A stretch of DNA of 64,000 bases from an uncultured Erysipelotrichaceae bacterium. GTDB lineage: Bacteria > Bacillota_I > Bacilli_A > Erysipelotrichales > Erysipelotrichaceae. The stretch lies in assembly GCA_944326055.1 (NCBI GenBank), contig CALVCT010000021.1, positions 6,087 through 70,086 of the forward strand, given 5' to 3'. The notes below the pieces were generated by a model, which was not told where the DNA came from, searched no databases, and saw nothing but the letters and a program-made list of their open reading frames with translations. The translations under genes were made by a program, and so were the position numbers. Of this stretch, positions 3,773-52,662 are shown piece by piece (positions within the stretch are counted from its first letter, which is position 1; each line of letters opens with the position of its first letter).

Positions 3773-3804
3773 CTATCGATGCCGCCCATTCAAGATCTAG
3801 GTCA

Positions 3805-3965
3805 CCGATAGCTCCTCTGTCATCAAGACAGGAGTCATAAAGATGTTCTCCTTATGCCCAACTCACTGATGTACCCACCAGTGGTTTCGGCGGTTTGACC
3901 TTTCAGTGTCTTCAACGACTGTCGTCTCCCACACTTACTGATTCGCACCGCGCCTCTATCAACTT
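3805..3965 (-). promoter_or_regulatory. Lysine riboswitch (L-box) aptamer
   Basis: The minus strand reads GATAGAGGCGCGGTGCGAATCAGTAAGTGTGGGAGACGACAGTCGTTGAAGACACTGAAAGGTCAAACCGCCGAAACCACTGGTGGG...CCTGTCTTGATGACAGAGGAGCTATC. The hallmark L-box blocks AGAGGCGC, AGTA, GGGAG, CTGAAAGG, CCGCCGAA and CTGG are present. P1 closes by GATAG/CTATC. Confidence 0.75.
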
Positions 3966-3976
3966 TTACGGGTGCT

Positions 3977-14133: not shown

Positions 14134-15557
14134 TGGAATTCGATCTGACTAAAAGACACTGTTACTACTTCAATGAGATCGCCAAGATCCCCCATGGCTC
14201 CTATAACGAGAAAGCCTTGAGCGATCATCTCGTTGACTTCGCTAAAGATCATGGCCTAGAGCATATTCAAGATCCGATGGGCAATGTCGTGATCTATAAA
14301 GAAGGTACTGGCAAAGACAAAGACCATGAGCCTCTCATCCTACAAGCCCATATGGACATGGTCGCTGAAAAGAATAAGGATAGTGCTCACGATTTCTTAA
14401 GAGATCCTTTAGAGCTCTATGTGGAAGATGGTTTCCTTAAAGCTAAGGGCACGACCCTTGGGGCTGATGATGGGACGGGAGTGGCATACATGTTAGCGAT
14501 CCTTGATGATGATAGCTTAGTCCATCCACCACTTGAGTGCTGCTTCACCGTCCAAGAGGAAGTCGGTCTTCTTGGCTCACAAGTCCTTAAAGCCGAATAC
14601 TTTAAAGGTAAAAGGATGATCTCGCTTGACGGTGGAGGTGAAGTCAAGACCGGCATCAGTGCTGCGGGTGGTTGTATCTTTACTGCCGATCGTCCCTACA
14701 CTAAAGAGCCAGTTGATGGTTCAGGTTATATCCTTAAGATAAGAGGATTATCCGGTGGCCATTCAGGTGGTGAGATCCATAAGGAAAAAGGCAACGCCAA
14801 TACTCTCGCTGTAAGGATGCTAGAGGAGCTAGCTGATAAGACTTTGCGTCTTGTGAGTATCGATGGTGGTCTTAAAGATAATGCCATCCCTAGAGAGTGT
14901 GATGTGGTCTTCACTTCTACTCTTTCTGAAATAGAACTAAAAGGATCTTTAGATAAGAGTGCCAAAGCGATAACGGAGGAACTAGAATACTCCGATCCGG
15001 ACTTCTTCTATGAACTGGAGAAGACAGAGGTCGAGATGACGATGTCCAAGGCTGATACCGAGGCGATCTTAGATTTCATCTATCTTGCGCCTAATGGCTT
15101 TAGACACCGTTCGATGGCGATCGAAGGTCTAACGCTCACATCTTTAAATATGGGCGTCATCAAGACCGATGAGACGAGACTAGAGATAACGATCTCGATC
15201 CGCAGTGCTCTAGAAAGTGGTATCGACAATCTAGTCAATATCTTAAAGAAATTAGCGCTGACCTTTGGCTTGACTTATAGTACCTCAGCGCGCTATCCGG
15301 GTTGGAATTATGTCAAGGAATCGAAGATGCGTGAGATCTTCCGCGAGGTCTTAAAAAAGACGACTGGTCAAGATCTCATCGAAGAAGCGGCCCATGGCGG
15401 TAATGAATGTGGTGTCTTCAATGGCCTTCTCGGTGGTGTCGATATCATCACCATGGGTCCTAAGACCTACGATATCCATACGCCGAAGGAACGTCTTGAT
15501 CTGGCATCCTTCGATCGTGCCTATACTTTACTTACTAAAGTCGTGGAGGAATGTTGA
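14130..15557 (+). CDS. pepD: Aminoacyl-histidine (Xaa-His) dipeptidase, M20 family
   Basis: 475 aa with motifs HMDMV, GADDGTGVAY and QEEVGLLGS. The start overlaps the S9 stop (ATGA). Confidence 0.85.
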   Translation: MMEFDLTKRHCYYFNEIAKIPHGSYNEKALSDHLVDFAKDHGLEHIQDPMGNVVIYKEGTGKDKDHEPLILQAHMDMVAEKNKDSAHDFLRDPLELYVEDGFLKAKGTTLGADDGTGVAYMLAILDDDSLVHPPLECCFTVQEEVGLLGSQVLKAEYFKGKRMISLDGGGEVKTGISAAGGCIFTADRPYTKEPVDGSGYILKIRGLSGGHSGGEIHKEKGNANTLAVRMLEELADKTLRLVSIDGGLKDNAIPRECDVVFTSTLSEIELKGSLDKSAKAITEELEYSDPDFFYELEKTEVEMTMSKADTEAILDFIYLAPNGFRHRSMAIEGLTLTSLNMGVIKTDETRLEITISIRSALESGIDNLVNILKKLALTFGLTYSTSARYPGWNYVKESKMREIFREVLKKTTGQDLIEEAAHGGNECGVFNGLLGGVDIITMGPKTYDIHTPKERLDLASFDRAYTLLTKVVEEC

Positions 15558-16135
15558 TGAAAAAAGGATTAGTCATCATCTTGAGTGGGGCATCCTCAGT
15601 TGGTAAGGGTGCCATCCGAAAGGCCCTGTTAGATGATCCTGAGCTCGATCTTTTCTATTCCGTCTCAATGACGACTAGACCTAAACGGGAAGGAGAAGTC
15701 GATGGTAAAGACTACTACTTCGTCTCCTTTAAAGAGTTTGCCCAGGCCGTCAAAGAACGCAGTCTTTTGGAATACACTGAGTTCAATGGTTACTACTATG
15801 GTACACCTAAGAGCCAAGTCGAGTTCTTATCGAGTGTCGGTAAGAACGTCCTGATCGAAGTCGAGGCTCAAGGTGTCGGACCGATCAAGCTGAATCTGCC
15901 CGATTCGATCGCTTTCTTTGTGATGCCCGAATCGATCGAGCAGTTAGAGAAACAGATCTATGCCATCTATAAGGATGATGAGGCCAGTGCCAAGAACCGT
16001 CTCAATAAAGCCAAGATGGATATGGAGATCGCCCCGCTTTTCAAAAATGTAGTCTACAACACTGACCCTGAAGCTGCTCATCAGCAGATCAAAAAGGTCA
16101 TCTTAGAAGCCATGGCCAATAGAAAGGATGAATGA
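15557..16135 (+). CDS. Guanylate-kinase-like protein (divergent paralog)
   Basis: ORF 15551..16135. ATG 15557 sits 6 nt after GGAGGA and overlaps the pepD stop. The GMP-site block SVSMTTRPKREGEVDGKDYYFVS is retained. The P-loop reads GASSVGKG, and the lid region reads QIYAIYKDDEASAKNRL instead of the R-rich lid of the canonical copy at 38180. Confidence 0.7.
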   Translation: MKKGLVIILSGASSVGKGAIRKALLDDPELDLFYSVSMTTRPKREGEVDGKDYYFVSFKEFAQAVKERSLLEYTEFNGYYYGTPKSQVEFLSSVGKNVLIEVEAQGVGPIKLNLPDSIAFFVMPESIEQLEKQIYAIYKDDEASAKNRLNKAKMDMEIAPLFKNVVYNTDPEAAHQQIKKVILEAMANRKDE

Positions 16136-26050: not shown

Positions 26051-26566
26051 ATGAACGAAACGATCAAGACGATCTTAGAAAGAAGATCACAAAGAAAGTT
26101 CACGGAGCAAAAGATCTCAAAAGAAGACTTACTTTTGATCACAGAATGTGCTTTACATGCACCAAGCGCAAGATGTTCAGACAAATGGCATTTTACGATC
26201 ATCAATGATGATGAGCTGATAGATGAGCTGATAAAAGTCATGCAGGAGCTCTTAGATAGAGAAAGTTACGATCTCTATAGACCTAAAGCGATCATCATTC
26301 CTTCAACACCAAGAGATTATAAGTATGGTGTCGATGACAATGCCTGTGCCTTAGAGAATATCTTTCTTGCAGCGACCTCACTTGGTATCGGATCTGTTTG
26401 GATCAACCAATTGCGCGATTTCAATGATGATGTCAAACTCAGGACTTATCTTGATAAGCTTGAGATACCTGAAGATCATGTCGTCTATGGCATCGCTGTT
26501 TTGGGCTATCCTTCAGATGAGCCACTGAAGAAAGAGCGCAAAGGTACATACAAGTATTTTAGCTAG
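26051..26566 (+). CDS. Nitroreductase family protein
   Basis: 171 aa. N-terminus ILERRSQRKF and overall length fit the NADH/flavin nitroreductase fold. GGAGGA RBS. Confidence 0.75.
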   Translation: MNETIKTILERRSQRKFTEQKISKEDLLLITECALHAPSARCSDKWHFTIINDDELIDELIKVMQELLDRESYDLYRPKAIIIPSTPRDYKYGVDDNACALENIFLAATSLGIGSVWINQLRDFNDDVKLRTYLDKLEIPEDHVVYGIAVLGYPSDEPLKKERKGTYKYFS

Positions 26567-26594
26567 AAAAGACCGATCGGTCTTTTCTTTTTTT
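26567..26594 (+). terminator. Rho-independent terminator after the nitroreductase gene
   Basis: AAAAGACCGATCGGTCTTTT followed by CTTTTTTT. Confidence 0.75.
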
Positions 26595-26625
26595 GAGGAT
26601 CTTTTTAAAGATCCTCCTTTTTATA
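26595..26625 (+). promoter_or_regulatory. Perfect 7-8-7 palindrome (second terminator or operator) just upstream of the first WXG100 gene
   Basis: GAGGATC-TTTTTAAA-GATCCTC (26595-26616) followed by CTTTTTATA. It lies 30 nt upstream of ATG 26647. Confidence 0.5.
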
Positions 26626-26646: not shown

Positions 26647-26946
26647 ATGCGAAGGATAGTGGTCGAGACAGCTCGTGTCTTAGAAACGGCTGATCGGATC
26701 GAAGAAGCGAAAGAAGAATATAAGCGTTTATATTTTGAGCTATATGATCGCGTCGATCTTTTAGCTGGTGTTTGGACAGGAGCTGACAATCAAAAGTTTA
26801 CGACGAAGATCAAGTCGTATGAGGATGATTTTAGGCGTATCTCAGTGATCATGATGCAGTATGTGGATTTTCTAAGACACAGCGCAAAAGCATATGCGAG
26901 TACGCAAGAAGAACTCATCAATCAAGCAGAGCATCTGAAGACTTAA
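26647..26946 (+). CDS. WXG100 (ESAT-6/EsxA-like) protein
   Basis: 99 aa, predicted helix-turn-helix, W43-T-G45 at the centre (LLAGVWTGADNQKF). AAGGAGG RBS. Confidence 0.8.
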   Translation: MRRIVVETARVLETADRIEEAKEEYKRLYFELYDRVDLLAGVWTGADNQKFTTKIKSYEDDFRRISVIMMQYVDFLRHSAKAYASTQEELINQAEHLKT

Positions 26947-26958
26947 GGAGGTGAAAAA

Positions 26959-27255
26959 ATGGGTGATATCAAGATCACGATAGCTGATGTCAGAAACACA
27001 GCGAGTGAGCTCAGAAGGCTTAATACGAGCTTAGATAATGTCTTGGAGAAGACAAAAAATGAAATGCGCTCTTTGAGTGCTATATGGAGCTCTGATGGTT
27101 CGGAGATGATCAGGCAGCGTTTTGAACATTTTTCCAAGAAGTTTCTTGAGGAGAAAGAGACGATCGAAGAATATGCTCGGTTTTTAGATCTGACTGCTGA
27201 ATCATATGATTCATTAGAATCGACGATCACAGAGAATGCGTCGACTTTCATCTAG
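26959..27255 (+). CDS. WXG100-like protein with a degenerate turn (W-S-S-D-G)
   Basis: 98 aa. LSAIWSSDGSEMIRQRFEHFSKKF...ESYDSLESTITENASTF is collinear with staphylococcal EsxA (ANWEGQAFSRFEEQF...). AAGGAGG RBS. Confidence 0.7.
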   Translation: MGDIKITIADVRNTASELRRLNTSLDNVLEKTKNEMRSLSAIWSSDGSEMIRQRFEHFSKKFLEEKETIEEYARFLDLTAESYDSLESTITENASTFI

Positions 27256-29185
27256 ATCAAAGATCATCTTTCTTGTCTTGCTTATCATATTGAGTTGCGT
27301 GGGTTGCAAGAGCGAAGATGAAGATATCTATACTAAAAGAGAATGGTCAAGCGACCTTATGGCTGTGACGAATATCGATGATCTGGATGCTTGGAGCATC
27401 AGGATCGAAGGCGAGCTTGATGAGGCACTCTTGTTGGATGATGTTGCAGGGTCATTAGCTCCACTTTTAGACCAAAAAGAGTTGGTAACCATGCCTAAAG
27501 ATATCGAAAGATCGAAAGATCCTTCTGCCCTAGCTTTAGTCATGGCTCATGGGATCATTGATCAAAAAGGTGAGATAGAGCCACAAAAGACGGTCGATCG
27601 CGATGAAGCAAAGATCTATCTTTCACGCCTCAGGGCGATCATCGATCACAAAGAGTTTGAGGATGAGGCTTTTGTCGAATATCAAAGACCGATCACGATC
27701 GACGAAAGTCCTTCGCTTGACTTAGATGTGCATGAAGTTGGTGAGTTCATCTATAGCGAAGCAGATGATAAGTTCTATGAGATCACTCAAGAAAACGGCA
27801 TCAAAGATAAAAGAGAGATCAGTTTTGAGGAAGTCTTTGAGAAGGTCGATATCCAAGGTACGATCGAAGACCTCGACCTATCTAGTGCAGAGATAGAGAT
27901 CGATGGCGAGATCATCGAAGATGATTCGATCTATGCTCAGGATGGTATCGAAAGGATGGCAAACTTTTCACCTAGTGGTGAATTCGAAAAAGGTGGATTC
28001 AAGATCAGTTACGCCATATCTTTAAATAAGATCCATCTGTATGTCTCAAAGAAGACTGATAGAGGGATCAATGTCTATTTTGATGGAGATATCTATGGGA
28101 TCAAACCGTCTTATAAGTGGGACTATGAAGATGGTACGATCAAAGAAGCTTATCTAAATGTTGATTTCAAGACATCTGAAGAAGTCGGGATGTCGATCGG
28201 CAGATATAAGTTCTTATATGGCGATTTTTCGCTATTTGAAGAACCGAAAGATCTCTTCAATAAACTCAAAAATTTCATGAAGCCTAAAGAAGATATCATC
28301 GACACTTCTTTCACCTTGATGAAGATCAAACTACCGATCGCTAACTTTCCTTTGGCTTCTTTTGATATCGAGCTTAAATTGAATATCTATGTGAGTGGAA
28401 AAGTCGAGATCGCTATCGCTACAGATCATACTGTCGGGGCCGAGATCAACAACGGTGCTGTGCGTTTGATCTTAGATCATCAAGAAGATGTCGACTTCAA
28501 TATCGATGCGACAGCTTCCAGTACTCTTTCATTATCGTTTGCACTTAGTCTTTTAAAAGACCTGGTAGATGTGCGCTTTAATGGTGGTATCAAAGCCAAT
28601 GTCGGTACGACATTGCATATGTATGATAGTGAAGGCCATCTGATCAGCACGAGCGCTAAAGCTGACTACGATGTCCTTGAAGCATCAGCTGATAAAGATG
28701 GGGTCTATGTCTGTGCCGATCTTTCGCTATCATGGATCCTCAATATCGAACTCAATTCCGAGAAGACTTTAGCTTCGATGTTTGGCTTGTCAAAGAAGTT
28801 CACGATCTTGGATGAGGACGATCAGGTGCTGGGCAATAAGAGCCATATCGAAAAAGGGCAGTTCGTCGATCACTGTACTTATAAGGATCGAGCATCAAAA
28901 ACAAGTATGCCGACCGTTTCGATCAAAAGCGAAAGGATATCTCTTGGAAGCTACGCAATGGTCATACGCGGACCATCAAAGATCGACATCGTAGCTCTAC
29001 CAAGCGGATATTCTCGATCTGATCTTCGCTATGAAAGTGAAGATGAGGCGATCGTCAGTCTCGATGGGGATGGTTCTATCACCCCTTTGAACAATGGAGT
29101 GACTAAAGTACGCGTCTATACAGCAGATGGCGAACATGAAGCCTATGTCAATATCTTGGTGAGTATCGATGAGAAAGAAGCTTGA
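27236..29185 (+). CDS. Lipoprotein of unknown function with a C-terminal Big_2 (bacterial Ig-like) domain
   Basis: 649 aa. Signal peptide with lipobox (LIILSCVGC), a beta-rich middle region, and C-terminus SEDEAIVSLDGDGSITPLNNGVTKVRVYTADGEHEAYVNILV, which is typical of Big_2. Overlaps both neighbouring genes. Confidence 0.6.
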   Translation: MRRLSSRSKIIFLVLLIILSCVGCKSEDEDIYTKREWSSDLMAVTNIDDLDAWSIRIEGELDEALLLDDVAGSLAPLLDQKELVTMPKDIERSKDPSALALVMAHGIIDQKGEIEPQKTVDRDEAKIYLSRLRAIIDHKEFEDEAFVEYQRPITIDESPSLDLDVHEVGEFIYSEADDKFYEITQENGIKDKREISFEEVFEKVDIQGTIEDLDLSSAEIEIDGEIIEDDSIYAQDGIERMANFSPSGEFEKGGFKISYAISLNKIHLYVSKKTDRGINVYFDGDIYGIKPSYKWDYEDGTIKEAYLNVDFKTSEEVGMSIGRYKFLYGDFSLFEEPKDLFNKLKNFMKPKEDIIDTSFTLMKIKLPIANFPLASFDIELKLNIYVSGKVEIAIATDHTVGAEINNGAVRLILDHQEDVDFNIDATASSTLSLSFALSLLKDLVDVRFNGGIKANVGTTLHMYDSEGHLISTSAKADYDVLEASADKDGVYVCADLSLSWILNIELNSEKTLASMFGLSKKFTILDEDDQVLGNKSHIEKGQFVDHCTYKDRASKTSMPTVSIKSERISLGSYAMVIRGPSKIDIVALPSGYSRSDLRYESEDEAIVSLDGDGSITPLNNGVTKVRVYTADGEHEAYVNILVSIDEKEA

Positions 29186-32100
29186 ATTATACAAAGGTGC
29201 AACTAGGAAGACGCTGATCCTTGATCACAAAAGACAAAGGCAAGTCCATTTTGGTGGTCTTGCCTTCTATTATCGTGATGATCAGTGGTATATCGATCTT
29301 AAAGAGTATAAAAGTGATTCTGATAAAAGCTTTGAGATCTTAAGATCTAAGATATATACTCTAAAAAGAGAAGACCTCTATCATCTTATTTTTTTAGTCG
29401 TTAAGGATGAGATAGAATCCTTTGTAGCGTATAAGATGCAAGATGTCCTTATCAGTTCACTCAAGACAAGCGAGATGGTCACTAAGACAAAAGAGCTCGC
29501 TTTTGCCCATATCTTTATCAAAGATGCCAAGATCATAAGCGATTTCGAATACATCTATCTCAATGATCATCGCTATGATGGAAGTAGACTAGAAGATCAC
29601 GATCGCATCGACATCTTGGGATTGACCCTGATCTATACGAAAGACTATCTTTTTTCTAATAACTTTGGCGTAGAAGTCGATCTTGAAGAAGTAAAGATCA
29701 CGACTTCTGTCGTAAAAGAGCCTTCTTTTATCATTGAACGCCACTATCGTCAAAAAGCGATCTTACCTAGATTAGAGTATAGTCTGAGGTTACAAAATAA
29801 AGAAAACGCCGAAGAAGCGCCATTCATCATTACTTTTGGCCAGGGACTATTCATGAGTTTAGGTATGTTAGGAGTATCGATCGTCAGTGCTTATCTGAGT
29901 TATATGAGTGGTCGATCGCTTATTGAGATCATAATGATCGTCGCCATGCCGCTTTTGATGGCTATCTCAGCGATCTTATTCCCGCTTTTACAAAAACGAT
30001 ACCGAAGCAGGTCAAGAAAGAAAAGAGATAGTCTTAAGGATAGCCATGATAAAGAAGCTGTGGATACTCTGATACAGAAGATCGAAAGTGATATCACGAT
30101 CATCAAGGAATATCATGAAAGCTATGGCTTCACTTCTAGCGATCTTCATCGCTTATTTGCCGATAAGGAGCTCTTTTATAGAGAGAAAGAAGATGAAGAT
30201 GCTCTATATATCACTTTAGCTAGAGGAAAAAAGAAGCTCGACCTCAAGATCAAAGATGAAGGAAATAACGGTGATAAAGTGATCGCTGAGCTAAAAGAGC
30301 GCTACAGTTATTTAAGTGATGTCCCAATCATCATCGATCTTAAAAGCTATGACTTCCTTACTATCAGAGCTTTACGAAAACGCAACGAAGTCTTTTTGTA
30401 TATCTTGCTAGAGTTGGCGCTTACTGTCTCTTATAAGGATATCAAGATCGCACTTTGTATCGATAGAGCGTTTTATGAGCGTTATGGTGATATCGTCGAT
30501 ATTCCACATCTCTATGATGCAGATCGAAGATTGATCTTCATCGACGAAAGTGCCAAAGTGCCGCCCGGAACTATCATCTTGAGCCTATATAATCTCAATG
30601 AGGAAATAAAAGAAGAAAGCTCGATCATCTATTTCAGTGATGGTGATATCCCTAAGAGGACAAAACTCATTATCGATATCGATAAAGATTTAGTTACGAT
30701 CACTGATGGATGCGATTGTGATATCTATCGTTTAACAGTCTTTGCGTATGACATAAGGATCTTTGATAGATTAAGATCATATAGATCCTATGACAAAGAC
30801 GATGCGATCAGGATGCCTGTGCTAACTGATATCTATGATCATGATATCGATCTTGCGAAGATCTATCAAAACGATGAAGGCATCATCGCAACTCTAGGGA
30901 TCGATGAAGATCGCCAACGGCTAGTCTTTGATCTTTCTCAAGAAGGTATAGGGCCTCACGCGATGCTTTCGGGGTGCACAGGAGCTGGAAAATCAGAATT
31001 TTTACTATCACTTATCTTATCGTTGGCTCTTAGATCAGATGCTAAACATCTGAATTTCGCTCTCATCGATTATAAAGGTACAGGCCTTTTAGAAGCATTG
31101 TCATATAAAGGAGAAACTTTACCACATATCGTATTGGCACTTAATAATCTTGACGAAGTCGCTCTAGATCGTTCACTAGCATATTTTCGACTTGAATGCC
31201 AAAGAAGAGAAGAAGCTTTTAGAAAATTGGCGGCGATCACACGGACCAGTATCATGGATCTTAAAGACTATCATCGTCTTGATCCTGAGAGCTATGGCAT
31301 GCCTTATATAGCAGATGAGTTCATCATCATCGATGAATTTGCTGAGCTGAAACTTGCGAGGCGTGATTTCATCAAAGATATCATATCGATCGCCCGTATC
31401 GGTCGAAGCCTTGGGATAATGTTGCTGTTGAGCACGCAAAAGCCTAGTGCTGTCGTCGATCAGGAAGTATGGGCCAATACTTCTTATCGTATATCTCTTA
31501 AGGTCCAAGATGAGAGCGATTCAAAAGAGATGATAGGGACTGGTAAAGCCAAGATGATCAAAAGACCAGGCGAATTCTATCTGAGGACTAAAGATCGACT
31601 ATATCATGGCTATGGCACATATACGCGTTCTTTTAAGGATAGACGTAATGAAGAAGTCGTAGAGTTGATCGATCACAAAAAAGAGACGATAAGATCGCTG
31701 AGATACGAAGCTTTTGATAAGGAGCGCGAATCTGCTTTCTTCATCAAAAAGATCATTGAATATCACAAAATACATAAGATCCATCGTGAGACGATCTATC
31801 GACCAAAGCTTGAAGAAACAAGTTTTTATGAGCTGTATAAGAGGTATGACCTTGATCTGAGGAATGGCAAGATCTTGCTTGGAGAATACGATAATTTTAT
31901 GATAATGGATCAGGGAGCTCTGATCCACGATCTCAATAAAGATCCATTTCTCATCTTCAGTTATGAAGACAAAAAGAAACGTGACCTCTTTTTTAGAACA
32001 TGTTTGATGTCTTTGGCTTTTGAAGCTGATAAATACCATATTTTCTATATCGGCGACAAAAAGAGCGAACTCTTTGAATTTGAGAATTGGGTGGAAAGGA

Positions 32101-32849
32101 TCGATGTCGATGATGTTTCTGATATCGATTATCTATTTTATCGCCTAAAACGTAACGATCTTAAAAAGAAAGCCATCGTCTTTATCGAAGATCATCTGCG
32201 TTTCTTACAAGATCCGATGATCAAGGAGATGTTTGAAGGATCGATGCCACTATTAGACCGAGAACGCATAGGAATTATAAGTGCTTCTTTAAAGAAAGTT
32301 TCTTTGTCTTATAAATTAGAAGCTCTCTTTGTGCGTTATGTTTTAGACAATAAGGAAAAAGATACGCTCTTATATGCCTTTTCAAAAGTCGATGCCGTAT
32401 CAGAGATCGATGTAACTTCAATAGGTAAAAGGCTCGTTGGTTTCAAGCTTGCTTCGATAGCTAAAAATAGTTTCGCGATCAAAAGAGATGAGACGATCAT
32501 CAAAAAGATACCTGATGTGATAAAAAGCGAGCCTGATCTTTTGGGCTATGATCTAAAGACAAGAGAGAAGCTATACTTAAGAAGAGACGGTGTGCTGTTC
32601 TGTGCATATTATCAAGAAATGTTAGAAAGGTTCAAAAGGGGCTTCAACACTAGGTATAGGCATGATTATTCATTGTTATCGGATGTCGATAGAGATAAGT
32701 ATCATGACACGATAGTTTGGATAGGCCCAGGAATCATCAATCAATATCTCTTCATCCCCAAGATCAAAAAGGACCTACATAGAGACGAAGCATACATAGA
32801 AATAAGTGGCGAAGCTAAGGTGATAAGATATGTCGAAAATACGTTTTAG
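29169..32849 (+). CDS. essC: Type VII secretion FtsK/SpoIIIE-family ATPase EssC (shortened form)
   Basis: 1226 aa. Soluble N-terminal region, two TM helices (about aa 215-285), then an ATPase domain closely collinear with S. aureus EssC D1: GPHAMLSGCTGAGKSEF...LIDYKGTG, FIIIDEFAELK, ARIGRSLGIMLLLSTQKPSAVVDQEVWANTSYRISLKVQDESDSKE. Confidence 0.9.
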   Translation: MRKKLELYKGATRKTLILDHKRQRQVHFGGLAFYYRDDQWYIDLKEYKSDSDKSFEILRSKIYTLKREDLYHLIFLVVKDEIESFVAYKMQDVLISSLKTSEMVTKTKELAFAHIFIKDAKIISDFEYIYLNDHRYDGSRLEDHDRIDILGLTLIYTKDYLFSNNFGVEVDLEEVKITTSVVKEPSFIIERHYRQKAILPRLEYSLRLQNKENAEEAPFIITFGQGLFMSLGMLGVSIVSAYLSYMSGRSLIEIIMIVAMPLLMAISAILFPLLQKRYRSRSRKKRDSLKDSHDKEAVDTLIQKIESDITIIKEYHESYGFTSSDLHRLFADKELFYREKEDEDALYITLARGKKKLDLKIKDEGNNGDKVIAELKERYSYLSDVPIIIDLKSYDFLTIRALRKRNEVFLYILLELALTVSYKDIKIALCIDRAFYERYGDIVDIPHLYDADRRLIFIDESAKVPPGTIILSLYNLNEEIKEESSIIYFSDGDIPKRTKLIIDIDKDLVTITDGCDCDIYRLTVFAYDIRIFDRLRSYRSYDKDDAIRMPVLTDIYDHDIDLAKIYQNDEGIIATLGIDEDRQRLVFDLSQEGIGPHAMLSGCTGAGKSEFLLSLILSLALRSDAKHLNFALIDYKGTGLLEALSYKGETLPHIVLALNNLDEVALDRSLAYFRLECQRREEAFRKLAAITRTSIMDLKDYHRLDPESYGMPYIADEFIIIDEFAELKLARRDFIKDIISIARIGRSLGIMLLLSTQKPSAVVDQEVWANTSYRISLKVQDESDSKEMIGTGKAKMIKRPGEFYLRTKDRLYHGYGTYTRSFKDRRNEEVVELIDHKKETIRSLRYEAFDKERESAFFIKKIIEYHKIHKIHRETIYRPKLEETSFYELYKRYDLDLRNGKILLGEYDNFMIMDQGALIHDLNKDPFLIFSYEDKKKRDLFFRTCLMSLAFEADKYHIFYIGDKKSELFEFENWVERIDVDDVSDIDYLFYRLKRNDLKKKAIVFIEDHLRFLQDPMIKEMFEGSMPLLDRERIGIISASLKKVSLSYKLEALFVRYVLDNKEKDTLLYAFSKVDAVSEIDVTSIGKRLVGFKLASIAKNSFAIKRDETIIKKIPDVIKSEPDLLGYDLKTREKLYLRRDGVLFCAYYQEMLERFKRGFNTRYRHDYSLLSDVDRDKYHDTIVWIGPGIINQYLFIPKIKKDLHRDEAYIEISGEAKVIRYVENTF

Positions 32850-33075
32850 GATCAATATACCATCACTTGAAAAGAAGATCGAAGTGATCATGTCTAAAGA
32901 ACTGACATTAAAAGAGAATATGGAACTGGTCTTTGAGATGTTAGGGTATCGTATAGAAACTTACATCTTGATGCCTAGGCACAAAGCTATTGCCTTGGAT
33001 CTTGATATAGCCATCAAGGACATAGGGCTTTTAGATGGAGCTAGCTTATATCTCTATGATTTCACAAATCTATGA
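32830..33075 (+). CDS. YukD/EsaB-like ubiquitin-fold T7SS protein
   Basis: 81 aa, overlaps the essC stop. Alternating beta pattern IRFRINIP...IEVIMSKELTLKEN and C-terminal DIGLLDGASLYLY resemble YukD/EsaB. Confidence 0.55.
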   Translation: MSKIRFRINIPSLEKKIEVIMSKELTLKENMELVFEMLGYRIETYILMPRHKAIALDLDIAIKDIGLLDGASLYLYDFTNL

Positions 33076-33095
33076 AGATGTATTAAAATAACGGC

Positions 33096-35858
33096 ATGTC
33101 TAAAAGATGGATAGTATTTTTCCTTCTGTTTATATCTTGGAGCTTCTTTAAGATCGATGCAGAAGAGGGATATGCGCTTTATGATTCAAAAGCTGATAGC
33201 TATAAGAAGATAGCGGAAGCTTCGTCATTGAATGAAGCTAGAAACTTATATCGTGAGTTGAGTGATGACTACGACAACCTCGTCTTGCAAGATGGTGATC
33301 GCGTCATCATGATGGAATATGGTATCGTTGAGTTTAGAGTAGATGATGCTTGCGAGCTTATTTTGAACTACGAAGATCAAGAAGGTGATATCAAAGGGAT
33401 AAATGGCTGTTATGGAATAGATGCAGCATATCTTTCAACTAGTGATGACATGAGCGAAGTCGAGTTCATGATCAGCGGTGATATTGGTATGATCTCTGTT
33501 GACGATGTCATCTTGCATCCCTACGAGACTTTAGATGTCAGTATATCTTATTATACGAGGCGTGGTGATGATATCTATCACGATATCAAAGCGCAACTTG
33601 AAGAAGATTATGTCTATTCTAGTTTAGCTTTTGGACCTTCACCTAGTTATCTTAATAGTGATATGCGCTACTATAGCTATGATGGCCACTATTTTTATGA
33701 GTCTTTCTACGATCTTATCGATGATCTGCGCTTAGGAGCGCATGATAGAGCCATCAATAATAGCGAGCCATACTACAACTATTATATGTATCTGCCGCAC
33801 CGGACGCTGACGAGATATACGTTTAATGAGATCGATCACTATTTTAATGAGACGCTCGTTTTTAATAAGCATCTCGATACTTATATCGACTTCAATTATG
33901 ACTACGCTAATGATGATGTCAATAGGTCACAATATGTCGATAATATCGATGCGTTCTTTGAGAATGAATATCGCTATGGCGCAAATGCGATGATGATGTT
34001 GAGCCTTAGTATCTATGAGAGTTCGTATGGCAAGTCTTATAATGCTTATACGCAAAACAATCTCTTTGGTCATGCAGCTTATGATACGGCTGAAGAGATC
34101 GCTAATGGTCGTTATGATTCGATAGCTCGCTCGGTATATTCTCATGCGCGCTATTACATCTCTTCGCGCTTTGCTGATCACAACAGTTCGGTCTATAGTG
34201 GCTCCTTCTTCGGTGATAAAGCTTCTGGGATGAACGTCAACTATTCTTTAGATCCATATTGGGGCGAGAATCTGGCTAGCGATTATTATAGTTTGGATCG
34301 TTCATTAGGTTTCAAAGACTATAACGCCTATGCTTTAGGTATCAGCGATGATGATGAAGTCATATATATCTATCGTGACGCTGGCCTTGATGATATCGTA
34401 TATACTTTTGAAGATATCGCACCCTATTCTTTTGTCTTACTAGAAGAGGGCGATGATTACTATAAGGTGCAAGTCGATATGAGTGCTGATCAAGACATGC
34501 ACTTTTATGATTATGAGACAGATATCGGCTATATCGCAAAAGATACTGTCGATCATATCTTGAATCCTTCAAAGATCAAAGAGTTTACTTATCATACAGT
34601 GACTTTTGATCTTGATAATGGAGAGACCATCAGCTATAAGATCGCTGATGGTAAGATGCCGATGATCTCAGATCCTTATAAAGAGGGGTATGAATTCATT
34701 GGACTAGATAAAGATCTCTTAGCTAATTATGATGACACGGAGTATAAAGCGATATATCGCGAGATCGTCAGGATCGAAGTGATAGGCGATATCAAAAAGG
34801 AAGTAGCGCTTCACGGCCTGATCTCACTTGAAGGGGCGAGTTTAAGAGTCACTTATCGCGATCTGGATAGCGAAAGTGGGACATATGTCGAGACCCAAGA
34901 GATCATAGAGTTGACGACCGACATGATCTCAAATTATGATCTTGAAACCGAAGGTAAGCAAACGGTCATCGTTGATTATTGTGGTGTCATAACTTCATTT
35001 GAGATCGAAGTAAAGTCTGAACTATATGAAGATATCTTATATCTTGATAAAACGATCCCTGAGATCATTGAAAAGCTCACAAACAATGAAGAAGTCTCGA
35101 TCGAAGAAGTCATCAAAGTAAAAGAGATGGTCTTAGATACTGATTATGTCTTAGATAATACAGCGATCGTTCTCTTAGACCAGGTCTTACTTAAGGAGTA
35201 TCGACAATATATGTTGTTCAATATAAATGGGACAAGAGAATTGGCGATATCGGGTATGGCTTTGGCTTTAGATGTCGAAGATAGTTATAAGGATATACTT
35301 TGGCCAGATACTTATCACTTGAGCTCATCGATCGCATCTTTGAAAGATGAGAGTTATCTAACTAAGATCAGTAAGGGTTATGGTTTTGAAGAGATCACAT
35401 CTTTTTCGATCAACTTTAAAAAGAACGAGATACCGATCAGATCAGAAGGTCCTTTTATCATTGAGATCAGGGCAGCCGATCTTGATACACATAAGGTATA
35501 TACTGTCTACTATGTCGATGATGATGGAGATGTGATCAAGTGTCGCACGACACAAAGTAAAGATGCGATACAGTTTACGACGATGAGTGATGGCAACTTC
35601 ATGGTCTTAGCTTTAGATAGTTCTAATGATTATACATTGGAGAATCCTCAGATCTTCAATCTGACTGTCGATAATGATGATCTTGATCTCAATGCTACTC
35701 TCTATGTTGCTTTCTGGGGCGTATTTTTCATCTTGAGTATAACGATCGCATTTGTATATTATAAAGTTAAGAAAGAAAAGACGAGGTGGATATGGAACGT
35801 TTACAGAAAGTCTTGGCGGATGCCGGCGTCGCCTCAAGGCGCAAAGCGGAAGAACTGA
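33096..35858 (+). CDS. Membrane-anchored cell-wall hydrolase with a GH73 (N-acetylglucosaminidase) domain and Ig-like repeats
   Basis: 920 aa with an N-terminal signal peptide. GH73 block GANAMMMLSLSIYESSYGKSYNAYTQNNLFGHAAYD...DPYWGENLA. Ig-like segment (EGKQTVIVDYCGVITSFEIEV). C-terminal TM helix LYVAFWGVFFILSITIAFVYY and a basic tail. Confidence 0.7.
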   Translation: MSKRWIVFFLLFISWSFFKIDAEEGYALYDSKADSYKKIAEASSLNEARNLYRELSDDYDNLVLQDGDRVIMMEYGIVEFRVDDACELILNYEDQEGDIKGINGCYGIDAAYLSTSDDMSEVEFMISGDIGMISVDDVILHPYETLDVSISYYTRRGDDIYHDIKAQLEEDYVYSSLAFGPSPSYLNSDMRYYSYDGHYFYESFYDLIDDLRLGAHDRAINNSEPYYNYYMYLPHRTLTRYTFNEIDHYFNETLVFNKHLDTYIDFNYDYANDDVNRSQYVDNIDAFFENEYRYGANAMMMLSLSIYESSYGKSYNAYTQNNLFGHAAYDTAEEIANGRYDSIARSVYSHARYYISSRFADHNSSVYSGSFFGDKASGMNVNYSLDPYWGENLASDYYSLDRSLGFKDYNAYALGISDDDEVIYIYRDAGLDDIVYTFEDIAPYSFVLLEEGDDYYKVQVDMSADQDMHFYDYETDIGYIAKDTVDHILNPSKIKEFTYHTVTFDLDNGETISYKIADGKMPMISDPYKEGYEFIGLDKDLLANYDDTEYKAIYREIVRIEVIGDIKKEVALHGLISLEGASLRVTYRDLDSESGTYVETQEIIELTTDMISNYDLETEGKQTVIVDYCGVITSFEIEVKSELYEDILYLDKTIPEIIEKLTNNEEVSIEEVIKVKEMVLDTDYVLDNTAIVLLDQVLLKEYRQYMLFNINGTRELAISGMALALDVEDSYKDILWPDTYHLSSSIASLKDESYLTKISKGYGFEEITSFSINFKKNEIPIRSEGPFIIEIRAADLDTHKVYTVYYVDDDGDVIKCRTTQSKDAIQFTTMSDGNFMVLALDSSNDYTLENPQIFNLTVDNDDLDLNATLYVAFWGVFFILSITIAFVYYKVKKEKTRWIWNVYRKSWRMPASPQGAKRKN

Positions 35859-36520
35859 TCAAAAATGGCGATGTGAAAGTCGATGGTGAGATCATCACGA
35901 CTTTAGGATATAAGGTGACAGGTGAAGAAGATATCGAAGCCAAAGGACAAAAGATCAAAAAAGAAGAAAAAGTCGTCTTTATCCTCAATAAACCAAAGAA
36001 TGTCATCAGTACGGTCAAAGATGATAAAGGACGCTTATGCGTGGGTGATCTGATCGAGACCGATTACAGACTATTTCCTGTCGGTAGACTAGATTATGAA
36101 AGCAGTGGACTTTTGATCATGACAAATGATGGAGCTCTGACTAATAAGATCATCCACCCAAAATTTAGGATACCGAAGGTCTATGAAGTGACAGTCAAGG
36201 GCGATATCACGATCAAAGAGATCTCAAAGCTTAAAAAAGGCGTCGTCTTAGATGATGGTTTTAAGACTGGTAAATGTGAGATCTATCATGTCGATTCTAA
36301 TCCTAATAAAAAGACCCACCGTTACATCGTCACGATCTATGAGGGACATAATCGTGAGATACGCAAGATGTTCAAAACGGTAGGCGCAGAAGTCATAAGA
36401 TTACACAGAACAAAAGAAGCTTGCATTGAAATTGGCGATCTTAGGTCTGGTGAGTATCGTCGTCTCAAGATCCATGAAGTGAAGATGTTGAAGCGTTACC
36501 TAGATGGATCTGATCTCTAA
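35792..36520 (+). CDS. rluB: Pseudouridine synthase, RsuA/RluB family (S4 domain plus catalytic domain)
   Basis: MERLQKVLADAGVASRRKAEELI (S4 domain) and catalytic GRLDYESSGLLIMTNDG. GAGGTGG RBS. The start lies 67 nt inside the 3' end of the GH73 gene. Confidence 0.85.
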   Translation: MERLQKVLADAGVASRRKAEELIKNGDVKVDGEIITTLGYKVTGEEDIEAKGQKIKKEEKVVFILNKPKNVISTVKDDKGRLCVGDLIETDYRLFPVGRLDYESSGLLIMTNDGALTNKIIHPKFRIPKVYEVTVKGDITIKEISKLKKGVVLDDGFKTGKCEIYHVDSNPNKKTHRYIVTIYEGHNREIRKMFKTVGAEVIRLHRTKEACIEIGDLRSGEYRRLKIHEVKMLKRYLDGSDL

Positions 36521-38179: not shown

Positions 38180-38755
38180 ATGAAAAGGGGATTGTTGATA
38201 GTATTTTCGGGACCTAGTGGTGTCGGCAAGGGCACGGTCTTAAGTAAGCTCATGCAGATGAGCGATCTTGATCTTGTCTATTCCGTTTCGATGACCACAA
38301 GAGCACCAAGACAAGGAGAGAAGGATGGCATAAATTATTTCTTTGTAAGTGAAGAACGCTTTAAAGAAGCTATCTATGATAATGAACTCTTGGAACATGC
38401 TTATTTCGTCGATCATTATTATGGTACACCAAAGGCTTATGTAGAAAAGATGCGTAATGAAGGACATAATGTCGTCTTAGAGATCGAAACGGTCGGGTCA
38501 AAGCAGATCATGAATGCTTATAAATATGATGATCGTTGTATCTCGATCTTCCTTACACCGCCTGATATGAAAGAACTTGAAGCACGTATACGCAAGAGAT
38601 CGACTGAAAGTGAGAAGACGATCGAAAAGCGTGTACTTAAAGCGACACAAGAATTGCGCGAGACTTTCCGTTATAAATACGTCGTCTGCAATGAAGATGT
38701 CGATGACGCTGTGGAGAAGATCGCCGATATCATCAAAGAGAATATCGCTAAATAG
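38180..38755 (+). CDS. gmk: Guanylate kinase (canonical copy)
   Basis: GPSGVGKGT P-loop, SVSMTTRAPRQGEKDGINYFFVS, and R-rich lid LEARIRKRSTESEKTIEKR. Confidence 0.9.
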   Translation: MKRGLLIVFSGPSGVGKGTVLSKLMQMSDLDLVYSVSMTTRAPRQGEKDGINYFFVSEERFKEAIYDNELLEHAYFVDHYYGTPKAYVEKMRNEGHNVVLEIETVGSKQIMNAYKYDDRCISIFLTPPDMKELEARIRKRSTESEKTIEKRVLKATQELRETFRYKYVVCNEDVDDAVEKIADIIKENIAK

Positions 38756-49896: not shown

Positions 49897-50044
49897 AAAG
49901 ATCGCTTCATCTATCATTAAGATCCTCAAGCTTTATGATACAAGTAGATCTCTACCTTGATGCAATAACTAAGATGAGATCTAAAAAGAATAAGTGAAGA
50001 CATTTTCATTGATTTTATAGGGTAAAATCAGTATCATGATGAAG

Positions 50045-50246
50045 TGATCGTCAAAAGTAGTAGATAGTCAAAGCTTATAGAGAGCTCTTGTTTGGTGTAA
50101 AAGAGCAGTGTCATCTATCGAACTCGTTTGACATATAGATCGACCGCTGATCAGCGATAACGATGAAGAGTGCACATATGTCAATTCATATGTGAATTAA
50201 GGTGGTAACGCGTTTCTGACGTCCTTAAGTAGGGCGTTTTTATTTT
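50045..50246 (+). promoter_or_regulatory. T-box leader with a Leu (CUC) specifier, controlling leuS
   Basis: Stem I base GTCAAA/TTTGAC, AGTA box, AGAGA bulge and distal loop GGTGTAA. Specifier loop GAA-CTC-G (CTC at 50123-50125). T-box sequence AATTAAGGTGGTAACGCG (50196-50212). Terminator ACGTCCT-TAAGT-AGGGCGT plus TTTTTATTTT (50219-50246). Confidence 0.8.
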
Positions 50247-50259
50247 AAGGAGGAGAGTT

Positions 50260-52662
50260 ATGGCTTATACACACGATAAGACAGAAGCTAAATGGCGTAA
50301 GATCTGGGATGATGATGATCCTTGGTATACTGATACGCATGATTTCAGTAGACCCAAATATTATGTCTTAGATATGTTCCCTTATCCATCAGGAGTAGGG
50401 CTTCATGCAGGACATCCAGAAGGATATACTGCTACAGATGTCGTTGCACGTATGAAGAGGATGCAGGGATATAATGTCTTGCATCCGATGGGTTTTGATT
50501 CATTTGGTCTGCCTGCTGAACAATATGCGATACAGACTGGTAATCATCCTGAAGGTTTCACCAAGAAGAATATCGAGACTTTCAAAGATCAACTCAAGAT
50601 GTTAGGTTTCTCATATGATTGGACTAAGGAAGTTGCGACATCAGATCCAAGTTATTATAAGTGGACTCAGTGGATCTTCGAGCGTCTTTTTGAAGATGGC
50701 TATGCTAAGTATGTCGAGATGCCGGTCAACTGGTGTGAAGAACTTGGCACTGTCTTAGCTAACGATGAAGTCATCGACGGCAAATCAGAAAGAGGTGGTT
50801 ATCCTGTCGTACGTCGCAATATGCGTCAATGGATCATGGATATCCCAGCTTTCGCTGAAAGACTCTTAGAGAATCTTGATGAGCTCGATTGGCCTGAATC
50901 GACAAAAGAGATGCAGCGAAATTGGATAGGTAAGTCAACAGGTGCGGAAGTCAAGTTCACTGTCGCTGATTCAGATGAGAGCTTCATCGTCTTTACGACA
51001 CGGCCTGATACGCTTTTTGGTGCGACATATTGTGTCTTATCGCCAGAACATCCACTAGTCGATAAGATCACAAGTATTGATAAAAAAGAGGAAGTCGAGA
51101 GTTATCGTAAGAATTGTGCTAGTAAATCAGAGCTTGAGCGTACACAGCTGAATAAAGATAAGACTGGCGTCTTTATCGGTGCTTATGCGATCGATCCTGT
51201 CAATGACAAGCATATCCCTATCTATATCTCAGACTATGTCCTTATGAGTTATGGTACAGGCGCGATAATGGCTGTTCCGGCTCATGATGAAAGGGACTAT
51301 GAATTCGCTAAAAAGTTTGGTATCGAGATCATCGAAGTACTGAAAGGTGGCGATATCACAAAAGAGGCCTACACAGAAGATGGCACCCATGTGAACTCTG
51401 GATTTCTTGATGGTTTAGATAAAAAAGAAGCTATCGATAAGATCATCGCTTGGCTTGAAGAGCGTCATCTTGGCAAGCGTAAGATAAACTATCGTATCCG
51501 TGAGTGGATCTTCTCTCGTCAACGTTATTGGGGCGAACCTATTCCTGTCATCCACTATGAAGATGGCACGATAGGCATCATCGATGATGAAGATCTGCCA
51601 CTTGTCTTGCCAGAACTTGATGATTATAGCCCTTCAAAGAGTTGTGCTTCACCGCTTGAAAGAGCGACTGATTGGGTCAATGTCACATATAAAGGCAAAA
51701 AAGGCAAAAGAGAGACTAATACGATGCCAGGATCAGCTGGATCTTCATGGTATTTCTTACGTTATATCGATCCTAATAACGATAAACAGTTCGCTGATTA
51801 TGAACTTTTGAAACATTGGATGCCTGTCGATCTCTATATCGGCGGTCCAGAACATGCGGTAGGACACTTGCTTTATTCGCGCATGTGGAACAATTATCTC
51901 TATGACAAAGGTCTCGTACCATATAAGGAACCTTTCAAGAAGCTCGTCCATCAGGGCATGATCTTAGGTGAGAATGGTATCAAGATGGGCAAACGCTATC
52001 CTGAATATGCAGTAAATCCTAATGATATAGTAAGAGATTATGGTGCAGATACATTGAGACTCTATGAGATGTTTATGGGGCCACTTGGTGCTGATAAACC
52101 ATGGAGTACACAAGGTGTCATTGGTGCTCGCAAGTGGTTAGATCGTGTTTGGAGACTCATGATCGAGATGCCAGAGAAGATCTCTGAAGAGAATGATCAT
52201 ACTTTAGACTATTCATATAACTTTTTAGTCAAAAAGGTCACAAGTGACTTTGGATCTTTGGATATCAATACAGCTATCTCACAGATGATGATCTTCATCA
52301 ATGATGCCTATAAAGCTGATAAGCTCTATAAGGAGTATGCGATAAACTTCGTACAGATGCTTTCGTGTATCACGCCATTCATCGGTTATGAGATGTATGA
52401 GCGTCTTACTGGTAAAGATGATCTTACATATCGTCCTTGGCCAACATATGATGAGTCAAAACTCGTCAAAGATGAGATCGAGTATGTCGTTCAAGTCAAT
52501 GGCAAGGTCAGAGCTAAGTTCAGTGAGCGCACTGGCTTATCTAATGAAGAGATCTTAGATCTAGCCTTAACGCAAGAAAACATCAATAAGTTCGTGCCTG
52601 ATAGAGAAGCGATCAAAAAGTATTTCGTCATCAAGGGCAAGATGATCAACATCGTCGTCTAA
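50260..52662 (+). CDS. leuS: Leucyl-tRNA synthetase
   Basis: 800 aa with a class I HIGH-type motif ([14 protein letters not shown]), a KMSKS-equivalent (GIKMGKR) and a CP1 editing domain. GGAGGAG RBS. Confidence 0.95.

Follow-up and report, generated by a model that had tools for sequence, protein, structure and literature searches.

How the substrates of type VII secretion systems (T7SSs) in Gram-positive bacteria cross the membrane and the cell wall, and which accessory proteins they truly require, is still unsettled. The T7SSb of Staphylococcus aureus is encoded in the order esxA-esaA-essA-esaB-essB-essC, and that of Bacillus subtilis in the order yukE-yukD-yukC-yukB-yueB-yueC. The question is raised again by a locus in a 64,000-nucleotide (64-kb) stretch of contig CALVCT010000021.1 from an uncultured Erysipelotrichaceae bacterium, which is called the window in the following. 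As shown in Table 1, two WXG100 genes, a lipoprotein gene, an EssC-like ATPase gene and a small YukD-like gene are followed there by a gene for a protein with a GH73 domain, and EsaA, EssA and EssB are not recognisable among the products. What kind of system does such a locus encode?

The initial annotation treated the six genes as one unit, either a stripped-down T7SSb or an eroding locus. The open reading frames (ORFs) and their tight packing are as it described them; the comparative data show that the sixth gene, GH73, is not peculiar to this system. The conserved unit is five genes (WXG100-1, WXG100-2, the lipoprotein, the EssC-like ATPase and the small protein), not six. We consider it likely that the locus is a compact, selectively maintained T7SS variant with five translationally coupled core genes, operating by the mechanism proposed below. 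The term stripped-down T7SSb understates what is found, and the cassette is better seen as a further T7SS subtype, given its paralogous WXG100 pair, the degenerate D2 and vestigial D3 domains of its ATPase, and its new lipoprotein.

Five conserved genes and the proteins they encode

Related loci, each denoted by L and a number, were drawn from metagenome contigs and 34 species-representative genomes using the lipoprotein as the signature; a search of genome contigs with the EssC-like protein alone returned no loci, and the lipoprotein alignment retrieved them. The five-gene order is shared by about 35 further loci (34 species-representative genomes), nearly all from uncultured Erysipelotrichaceae of the rumen and gut, and it is kept down to about 25% EssC identity. 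Wherever flanks are available, the WXG100 pair lies upstream of the lipoprotein gene, with L036 as the sole exception, and the EssC-like gene lies downstream. The same five genes are found in L041 and L046, two loci retrieved independently via the GH73 gene, whose lipoproteins are 40% and 34% identical to that of the window.

The ratio of nonsynonymous to synonymous substitution rates (dN/dS) was determined using the Nei-Gojobori method. Between L033 and L034, the ratio is 0.03 for both WXG100 proteins, 0.09 for the lipoprotein and 0.11 for EssC and the small protein; between L021 and L028, it is 0.04 for WXG100-2, 0.10 for the lipoprotein and 0.11 for EssC. The closest relative of the window, L047 (GCA_949291685.1), is 98% identical at a synonymous divergence (dS) of about 0.05, with all ORFs intact and of identical lengths. 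In this pair, the ratio is 0 for WXG100-1, which has zero nonsynonymous changes, 0.13 for WXG100-2, 0.53 for the lipoprotein, 0.10 for EssC and 0.06 for the small protein. The cassette is conserved and under purifying selection, and the WXG100 pair evolves more slowly than the machinery (97–98% against 69–78% identity between L033 and L034).

Several loci depart from the common pattern or carry unexpected labels. In L036 (9410–11035), a 344-aa lipoprotein fragment without the signal peptide and the SLH part stands directly after the nitroreductase gene; the WXG100 pair is missing and the EssC-like gene is intact, which reflects a true deletion or else a misassembly. The lipoprotein of L035 is split into two ORFs. 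The Erysipelotrichaceae-type cassette and its flanks also occur in "cleanbin" metagenome-assembled genomes (MAGs) under other taxon labels (L016–L020 and L023: Acutalibacteraceae, Agathobacter, a Methanomethylophilaceae archaeon, Oscillospiraceae, Paratractidigestivibacter and Clostridium sp. CAG:217), which are most likely mis-binned contigs or mislabelled bins. In L044 (6771–11665), a 1546-aa EssC-like gene precedes an 84-aa gene whose sequence pattern is YukD-like, and no WXG100 or other T7SS gene was called within about 7–10 kb of it. The contig also carries Coat_F and SpoIID genes, hence comes from a spore-former, and L044 may represent another minimal arrangement.

The ATPase matches the Pfam family FtsK_SpoIIIE (E 6e-18) and the EssC model TIGR03928 (E 6e-79), the latter with 266 bits against a cutoff of 778.4 bits. 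When the family of 27 members was compared with eight T7SSb EssC proteins using hhalign, the probability was 100 and the E value 4e-105, and the two align end to end under permissive settings. The best match in the PDB is YukB of B. subtilis (9qks, E 5e-105), followed at a distance by EccC5 (E 8e-34). The protein is thus assigned by homology to the EssC/EccC class of FtsK/SpoIIIE-family membrane ATPases, in line with its first naming as EssC. It comprises an FHA-like N-terminal region, transmembrane (TM) helices at about 220–244 and 254–272, a linker/D0 region, and the domains D1, D2 and D3. The second FHA-like module can be aligned, with N132, L141 and D145 nearly invariant (N...L..D signature), and the first module aligns only under permissive settings.

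Only D1 keeps the ATPase motifs, and it is active-looking: Walker A is GCTGAGKSE at about 601–609, with G602, T604, G605, G607 and K608 invariant, and Walker B is DEFAEL at 722–727, with D722 and E723 invariant. D2 is without a Walker A motif, since SYEDKKKRDL is aligned opposite SPGFGKST of Listeria. D3 is vestigial, with an internal deletion of about 115 residues, and its N- and C-terminal strands still align. This reduction of D3 is common to the whole ATPase family and is thus ancient and stable.

The lipoprotein begins with a signal peptide (4–22) and a lipobox cysteine, Cys24, followed by an SLH-like helical domain (about 30–140), a small beta-sandwich (about 144–222), a large beta-rich domain (about 247–545) with strands of up to 23 residues and without a structural or Pfam match, and a C-terminal Big_2 Ig-like domain (about 570–645). 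An AlphaFold2 (AF2) model built from 122 sequences has a predicted local distance difference test score (pLDDT) of 90.3 and a predicted template-modelling score (pTM) of 0.78, and replaces an earlier model from 13 sequences with a pLDDT of 69.7. In Foldseek searches of this model against the PDB and BFVD, the sole confident match is the Ig-like domain. For the central domain, whose roughly 300 residues are modelled with high confidence, the PDB (searched twice) and BFVD gave no confident fold match; BamA/porin-like matches, with a probability below 0.1, were disregarded. The N-terminal domain of the first model matches 6bt4 and 3pyw with a Foldseek probability of 1.0, a root-mean-square deviation of 2.8–3.0 and about 136 aligned columns. 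Of 51 relatives, 8 match Pfam SLH (best E 4e-6), and the window protein has no SLH match at E ≤0.1. The Big_2 domain named in the initial annotation is weak in the window protein itself (E 0.023) and is borne out by its family, 33 of whose 51 members match.

Cys24 is conserved in at least 90% of the 122 sequences and is preceded by an N-terminal hydrophobic segment. In the central domain, G388, G401, R410, C493 and C547 are invariant, and E403, N507, H537 and E539 are nearly so. The family is large in metagenomes: when the lipoprotein profile was searched exhaustively with HMMER, 616 representatives scored E ≤1e-30, and about 135 of the 150 top matches are near-full-length homologues (590–730 aa). 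The 12 clusters given by a word-indexed search are a sensitivity undercount by comparison. The lipoprotein gene overlaps both neighbours (17–20 nt), and its position is kept at 24–54% identity. As a constant, translationally coupled member of the cassette standing in the place of the canonical partners, as was originally proposed, it is a reasonable candidate for the extracytoplasmic partner.

The raised ratio for the lipoprotein against L047 (8068–10017 in that locus) comes from 20 nonsynonymous and 10 synonymous differences, which are small counts (dN/dS about 0.53, against 0–0.15 for the neighbouring genes). The differences fall in residues 44–355 and 553–619 and none in 356–552, and they may reflect diversifying pressure on exposed domains. 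Public gene calls start the lipoprotein 41 codons later (608 aa; position 8191 in L047), so that the signal peptide and lipobox are lost; this is why the 649-aa protein is missing from the protein collection. The long start is favoured because the signal peptide and Cys24 are conserved in the 122 homologues.

Both small proteins at the head of the cassette, called WXG100 and WXG100-like at the outset, match Pfam WXG100: WXG100-1 with 23.3 bits (E 8e-5; TIGR03930 E 2.6e-9), and WXG100-2 with 31.7 bits. WXG100-2 also scores 113 bits with NF035934, over its cutoff of 100; the name of this model, "pore-forming ESAT-6 family", is of untraceable origin and is taken as a label rather than as functional evidence. 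The two are paralogous (hhalign 96%) and are matched to T7SSb EsxA at 89% and 82%, respectively. In the family alignment of about 30 loci, WXG100-1 keeps W-x-G-K-D-N. In WXG100-2, the tryptophan is conserved with a relaxed WXG motif, and the C-terminal Y-D-S-L-E-S-T...N-A-S-x-F, which includes a YxxxE motif, is invariant. A WXG motif on one partner together with YxxxD/E on the other reportedly constitutes the ESX secretion signal, a result credited to Daleke and co-workers in 2012. No further WXG-like ORFs were found in the window. The absence of an LXG effector gene, remarked on earlier, holds in Pfam and NCBIfam searches of the cassette proteins, and no LXG or DUF4176 genes stand beside the cassette in the annotated loci L001, L004, L041, L046 and L047.

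A protein of about 77 aa (74–105 aa as called) is encoded 3' of the EssC-like gene wherever the locus sequence continues. In the window, it matches Pfam YukD over positions 3–76 of the 76-position model with E 0.0092 and 17.2 bits, below the gathering score of 27, and one of the 26 family members has a YukD match. Against EsaB of Listeria and Oceanobacillus, the family gave an hhalign P value of 0.0027 and a probability of 11% in a colinear alignment of 59 columns; no significant match was found in the PDB profile search. The small protein is probably a ubiquitin-like partner of the YukD/EsaB type. Its position and size are conserved, and its colinear likeness to EsaB is weak.

Comparison with described type VII systems

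The subtypes T7SSa to T7SSj were defined by Garrett, Higginson & Palmer 2024 (PMC11217815). An ATPase and a WXG100 protein are common to all, although T7SSi has no clearly identified tsxA, and most carry a ubiquitin-like protein; the accessories include kinases, phosphatases, vWA, EspG-like and DUF6382-FHA proteins, the Ig-like TsxI and the beta-propeller protein TsgL, and a lipoprotein or SLH component occurs in none of them (PMC11217815). Erysipelotrichaceae are not mentioned in the text or supplements of that work, and no later extension of the list or description of the present arrangement was found in the literature searched. By its composition, the cassette matches none of these subtypes. 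The accessory domains of T7SSc, d, e, f, h, i and j (Ser/Thr kinase, PPM phosphatase, vWA, EspG-like, DUF6382-FHA, AAA+ TsfV and LytR-like TsiN) are absent from the six proteins, from the flanking genes at 12–52 kb of the window, and from the Pfam annotation of L001, L004, L041, L046 and L047.

The likeness to T7SSb lies in the ATPase, which is homologous end to end through the FHA-like region, the two TM helices, D0 and D1, in EsxA-related WXG100 proteins, in the weakly YukD-similar small gene adjoining essC, and in the Bacillota host. EsxA of T7SSb is homodimeric, whereas two paralogous WXG100 proteins are encoded here. T7SSb EssC has two FHA domains and D1–D3, whereas the cassette ATPase is about 260 residues shorter, lacks the Walker A motif in D2, has a vestigial D3 and fails the equivalog cutoff of TIGR03928. 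The cassette instead encodes a lipoprotein that combines SLH-like, uncharacterised beta-rich and Big_2 domains, and no LXG toxin or immunity genes adjoin the cassette, unlike at the T7SSb locus of Oceanobacillus (L043).

No EssB/YukC, EsaA/YueB or EssA/YueC is encoded locally, as had been noticed at first sight. None of the cassette proteins has a Pfam or NCBIfam match to these partners (PF10140 and PF10661 included), and the 649-aa and 920-aa proteins gave no such signal. With EsaA, EssA, EsaB and EssB queries taken from the canonical loci of Listeria ivanovii and Oceanobacillus (L042 and L043), phmmer searches of six-frame ORFs gave nothing at E <1 in the window and about 45 related loci. 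In hhalign, the probability is 0.2% for the lipoprotein against EssB, 0.2% for EsaA and 0.1% for EssA, and neither a PDB profile search nor Foldseek turned up any of these partners. The YukD-like gene persists in the cassette without a local YukC.

T7SSg of Acetivibrio and Paenibacillus is the closest known subtype in simplicity, as it is also small and has two non-identical WXG100 proteins, a ubiquitin-like protein, an ATPase and one extra protein (PMC11217815). However, the extra protein TsgL is a DUF5050 beta-propeller, whereas the cassette has a lipoprotein with a long-strand beta architecture; no DUF5050 match was found in the cassette proteins or 51 lipoprotein relatives, and Foldseek gave no propeller match. 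TsgC is without FHA domains, and T7SSg adjoins Tad pilus genes, whereas the cassette ATPase has an FHA-like region and the cassette lies amid housekeeping genes (PMC11217815). T7SSe shares the WXG100 pair, the ubiquitin-like protein and the FHA-bearing ATPase (PMC11217815). TsxI of T7SSd, e and j combines Ig-like domains with a signal peptide and a TM helix at the C-terminus (PMC11217815), and the GH73 neighbour resembles it in topology. The TsxD kinase, the TsxF PPM phosphatase, the TsxJ DUF6382-FHA protein, TsxH and TsxK of these subtypes were not detected in the cassette or its vicinity. Membership in T7SSg or T7SSe was rejected on these accessory components. With T7SSa/ESX of the small ESX-4 type, the cassette shares a paralogous WXG100 pair of the heterodimer type, with WXG on one protein and a C-terminal YxxxD/E-type motif on the other; unlike T7SSa, it lacks EccB, EccD, EccE and MycP and its host is a monoderm of the Bacillota. 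By the PDB profile matches given above, its ATPase groups with EssC over EccC.

Layout and surroundings of the locus

The features of the locus are listed in Table 1; the six ORFs stand exactly where the initial annotation placed them, and the double hairpin before them and the start of rluB inside the last gene are confirmed. Read from 5' to 3', the first two genes are separated by 12 nt, the next three junctions overlap by 20, 17 and 20 nt, and the last is a gap of 20 nt, so that none exceeds 20 nt; rluB starts 67–73 nt within the GH73 gene.

Table 1. Features of the locus and further features of the 64-kb window, in window positions
Feature	Position	Strand	Length or remark
WXG100-1	26647-26946	+	99 aa
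WXG100-2	26959-27255	+	98 aa
Signature lipoprotein	27236-29185	+	649 aa
EssC-class membrane ATPase (by homology)	29169-32849	+	1226 aa
Small, probably YukD-like protein	32830-33075	+	81 aa
GH73 envelope protein	33096-35858	+	920 aa; adjoining, not a dedicated component
rluB	35786-36520		possible ATG at 35792
Terminator-like hairpin 1	26565-26588	+	10-bp stem and T-run, right after nitroreductase stop codon
Terminator-like hairpin 2	26595-26616	+	9-bp stem and T-run
Nitroreductase-family gene	26051-26566		immediately 5' of cassette
T-box leader	50044-50229	+	102 bits, upstream of leuS
leuS	50260-52662
Lysine riboswitch	3801-3966	-	84 bits
Guanylate-kinase-family gene	15551-16135		Pfam E 7e-39; among peptidase genes (S9, M20, M24)
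Guanylate-kinase-family gene	38180-38755		Pfam E 5e-45

Only about 30 nt separate hairpin 2 from the start codon of WXG100-1, and its 3' arm, GATCCTCC, is complementary to the ribosome-binding site GGAGGAT of that gene. Since this interval leaves no room for a sigma-70-like promoter, expression of the cassette may depend on read-through or alternative pairing at the hairpins. The arrangement is identical in L047; among more distant loci, a single hairpin is present in L004 and none in L001 or L022. The double hairpin therefore does not define the system, and it was rejected as a conserved regulatory element because it is lost beyond the closest clade and has no Rfam match. The T-box leader and the lysine riboswitch are the sole Rfam matches at gathering level within the window.

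The cassette occupies a core-genome slot between polC/nitroreductase and the GH73-rluB-rqcH-gmk-rpsD-ezrA block. Its flanks are housekeeping genes, namely recG, rnc, polC and nitroreductase upstream and rluB, rqcH, gmk, rpsD and ezrA downstream. In 1-kb bins, the GC content of the locus is 0.368–0.426, against 0.39–0.43 in the neighbouring 19–64 kb, and its minimum (0.368 at 32–33 kb) is barely under the 0.374 at 47–48 kb. The impression that the locus has the lowest GC in the window does not survive this comparison, as the bins match their neighbours without an island-like anomaly; a GC island or horizontal transfer was rejected because the composition is like that of the neighbours and the chromosomal position is syntenic across species.

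The nitroreductase-family gene is found immediately 5' of the cassette in the clade of the window (69% identity) and also in distant loci without an adjoining GH73 gene (21–31% identity). The loci with this neighbour are L021, L022, L028, L029, L030, L033, L034 and L036, and the adjacency suggests old synteny or a functional link.

The GH73 assignment of the 920-aa protein is correct: between an N-terminal signal peptide and a TM helix at 869–887, it carries a glucosaminidase domain at 286–396 (Pfam E 5e-10) and repeat/Ig-like regions. A GH73 protein of about 900 aa upstream of rluB is widely conserved in Erysipelotrichaceae, with a basic tail ending in KPKN or KPKS. It is often trailed by rqcH (NFACT), gmk, rpsD and ezrA, and in the clade of the window the overlap with rluB is about 50–73 nt.

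Proposed mechanism, alternatives and meaning

In the proposed mechanism, the EssC-like protein would form a hexamer acting as membrane channel and motor, as expected from its homology to EssC and EccC, and would be stabilised by the small protein. Export would be powered by D1 alone, given the vestigial D3 and the loss of Walker A from D2. The small protein may bind EssC as YukD binds YukB in B. subtilis. The WXG100 heterodimer would carry a bipartite signal, the observed W-x-G motif on one partner and YxxxE on the other, and would be the main, possibly the sole, locally encoded substrate. The lipoprotein would be exported by Sec and anchored to lipid at Cys24, would probably bind the wall via its SLH-like domain, and would supply the extracytoplasmic part, as EsaA, EssA and EssB do in T7SSb.

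The initial annotation gave the GH73 protein a dedicated role as well, in a six-gene system where lipoprotein and hydrolase together replace EsaA, EssA and EssB and the hydrolase opens the peptidoglycan. A precedent exists in EssH, a wall hydrolase aiding the S. aureus T7SSb. The GH73 gene is directly 3' of the small gene in the window and about 15 loci, and the adjacency is found with four upstream neighbours (polC with nitroreductase, a PMT glycosyltransferase, Tex and a class A penicillin-binding protein); its signal peptide and C-terminal TM helix are also the topology of TsdI, TseI and TsjI (PMC11217815). We nevertheless regard this explanation as unlikely, because the backbone of GH73, rluB, rqcH and gmk exists without T7SS genes. 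Five GH73 homologues on long contigs were inspected. Three of them, full-length and 36–39% identical (L039 of Anaerorhabdus, L040 and L045), stand in a GH73-rluB-rqcH(NFACT) block, with gmk too in L039, and no T7SS genes lie within 10 kb; of the other two, the cassette is three genes away in L041 and directly adjoining in L046. Conversely, about 11 loci (L021, L022, L024, L025, L028, L029, L033, L034, L036, L037 and L038) carry all five cassette genes but no GH73 in the flank that is available. In L011, L012 and L041, three unrelated genes part the two, and in L010 the first of these follows the small gene before the contig ends. In this one sub-clade, the first intervening gene encodes a YgiQ-like radical SAM protein (about 600 aa), the second a product of about 143 aa that has a signal peptide, and the third a membrane protein (about 166 aa). 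The GH73 gene overlaps rluB rather than the cassette and its product has a conserved basic C-terminal tail, which ties it to the downstream housekeeping block. In the word-indexed search, more than 120 full-length GH73 homologue clusters were found against 12 for the lipoprotein, a weak contrast, the 12 being an undercount. The GH73 hydrolase is a housekeeping neighbour, the first gene of the GH73-rluB-rqcH-gmk backbone, and probably a housekeeping autolysin. Gene adjacency alone would wrongly assign it to the system.

An ordinary T7SSb whose EssB, EsaA and EssA are encoded elsewhere, with the lipoprotein acting not as a structural part but as a surface accessory, or as a receptor or immunity-type factor for the WXG100 pair, is in our judgement quite improbable. 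Lipoprotein immunity factors are known, as TipC protects against a T7SS toxin in this way. The homology of the ATPase to EssC from the FHA region to the C-terminus, the raised dN/dS of the lipoprotein against the closest strain, and the inspection of only about 20 kb per genome speak for such a system; so does the retained YukD-like gene, which could imply a YukC-like partner, as YukD bridges YukB to the pseudokinase YukC in B. subtilis (PMC12637312). However, all partners are contiguous with essC in the canonical loci L042 and L043 and are absent from the window and the related loci searched, the ATPase falls far short of the T7SSb equivalog cutoff (266 against 778 bits) with D2 and D3 degenerate, the lipoprotein gene keeps its place and its overlaps, and its dN/dS over deeper divergences (0.09–0.10) is the same as that of EssC. 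That the locus is an eroding, non-functional T7SSb remnant, the other possibility raised initially, is hardly tenable. The small gene set, the degenerate D2 and the truncated D3 would fit it, as would L036, without the WXG100 pair and the N-terminal half of the lipoprotein, and the split lipoprotein of L035; but about 35 loci, reaching down to about 25% identity, keep all five ORFs unbroken and in an unchanged order, dN/dS is 0.03–0.11, ORF lengths are identical at dS of about 0.05, the catalytic motifs of D1 are invariant, and the reduction of D3 is family-wide.

Several points weigh against the reading as a compact T7SS variant. In T7SSa, D3 is the domain that binds the substrate signal, so the vestigial D3 leaves substrate recognition unexplained, and the ubiquitin-like assignment of the small protein is weak at the sequence level. 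The lipoprotein dN/dS of 0.53, from small counts, also fits a surface-exposed protein outside the machine, and canonical partners could lie elsewhere in the cassette-bearing genomes. Since most loci were found via the lipoprotein, its 100% linkage is in part a product of the search, and only L041 and L046 are independent. The cassette stands beside the GH73 gene in four upstream contexts (the window, L001, L041 and L046), which would allow cooperation between them. Export by the system, assembly of its complex and the part played by the lipoprotein are all inferred.

A more specific form of the compact-variant reading is offered tentatively, as a possibility we hold open rather than favour. 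According to it, the system would be an eleventh, as yet undescribed T7SS subtype, specific to Erysipelotrichaceae and the leanest known in Bacillota. In it, the lipoprotein, membrane-anchored and held to the wall by its SLH-like domain, would replace EsaA, EssA and EssB as the only extracytoplasmic component by means of its beta-rich domain of new fold; the ATPase would run on one active nucleotide-binding domain with almost no D3; and a very slowly evolving WXG100 heterodimer with a core physiological role, in place of toxins, would be exported.

The system probably serves a conserved envelope, physiological or host-interface function and not polymorphic toxin delivery, because its core-genome position is stable, the WXG100 proteins evolve very slowly and no toxin or immunity genes adjoin it. 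If the mechanism is true, the EssB/EsaA/EssA module would be replaceable, and a naturally minimal system of this kind could define the minimal functional T7SS. The central domain of the lipoprotein is a concrete target for structural work. Many uncultured Erysipelotrichaceae of the gut and rumen carry the cassette in their core genome, and there the slow evolution of the WXG100 pair points to a conserved target or function and not to arms-race toxins.

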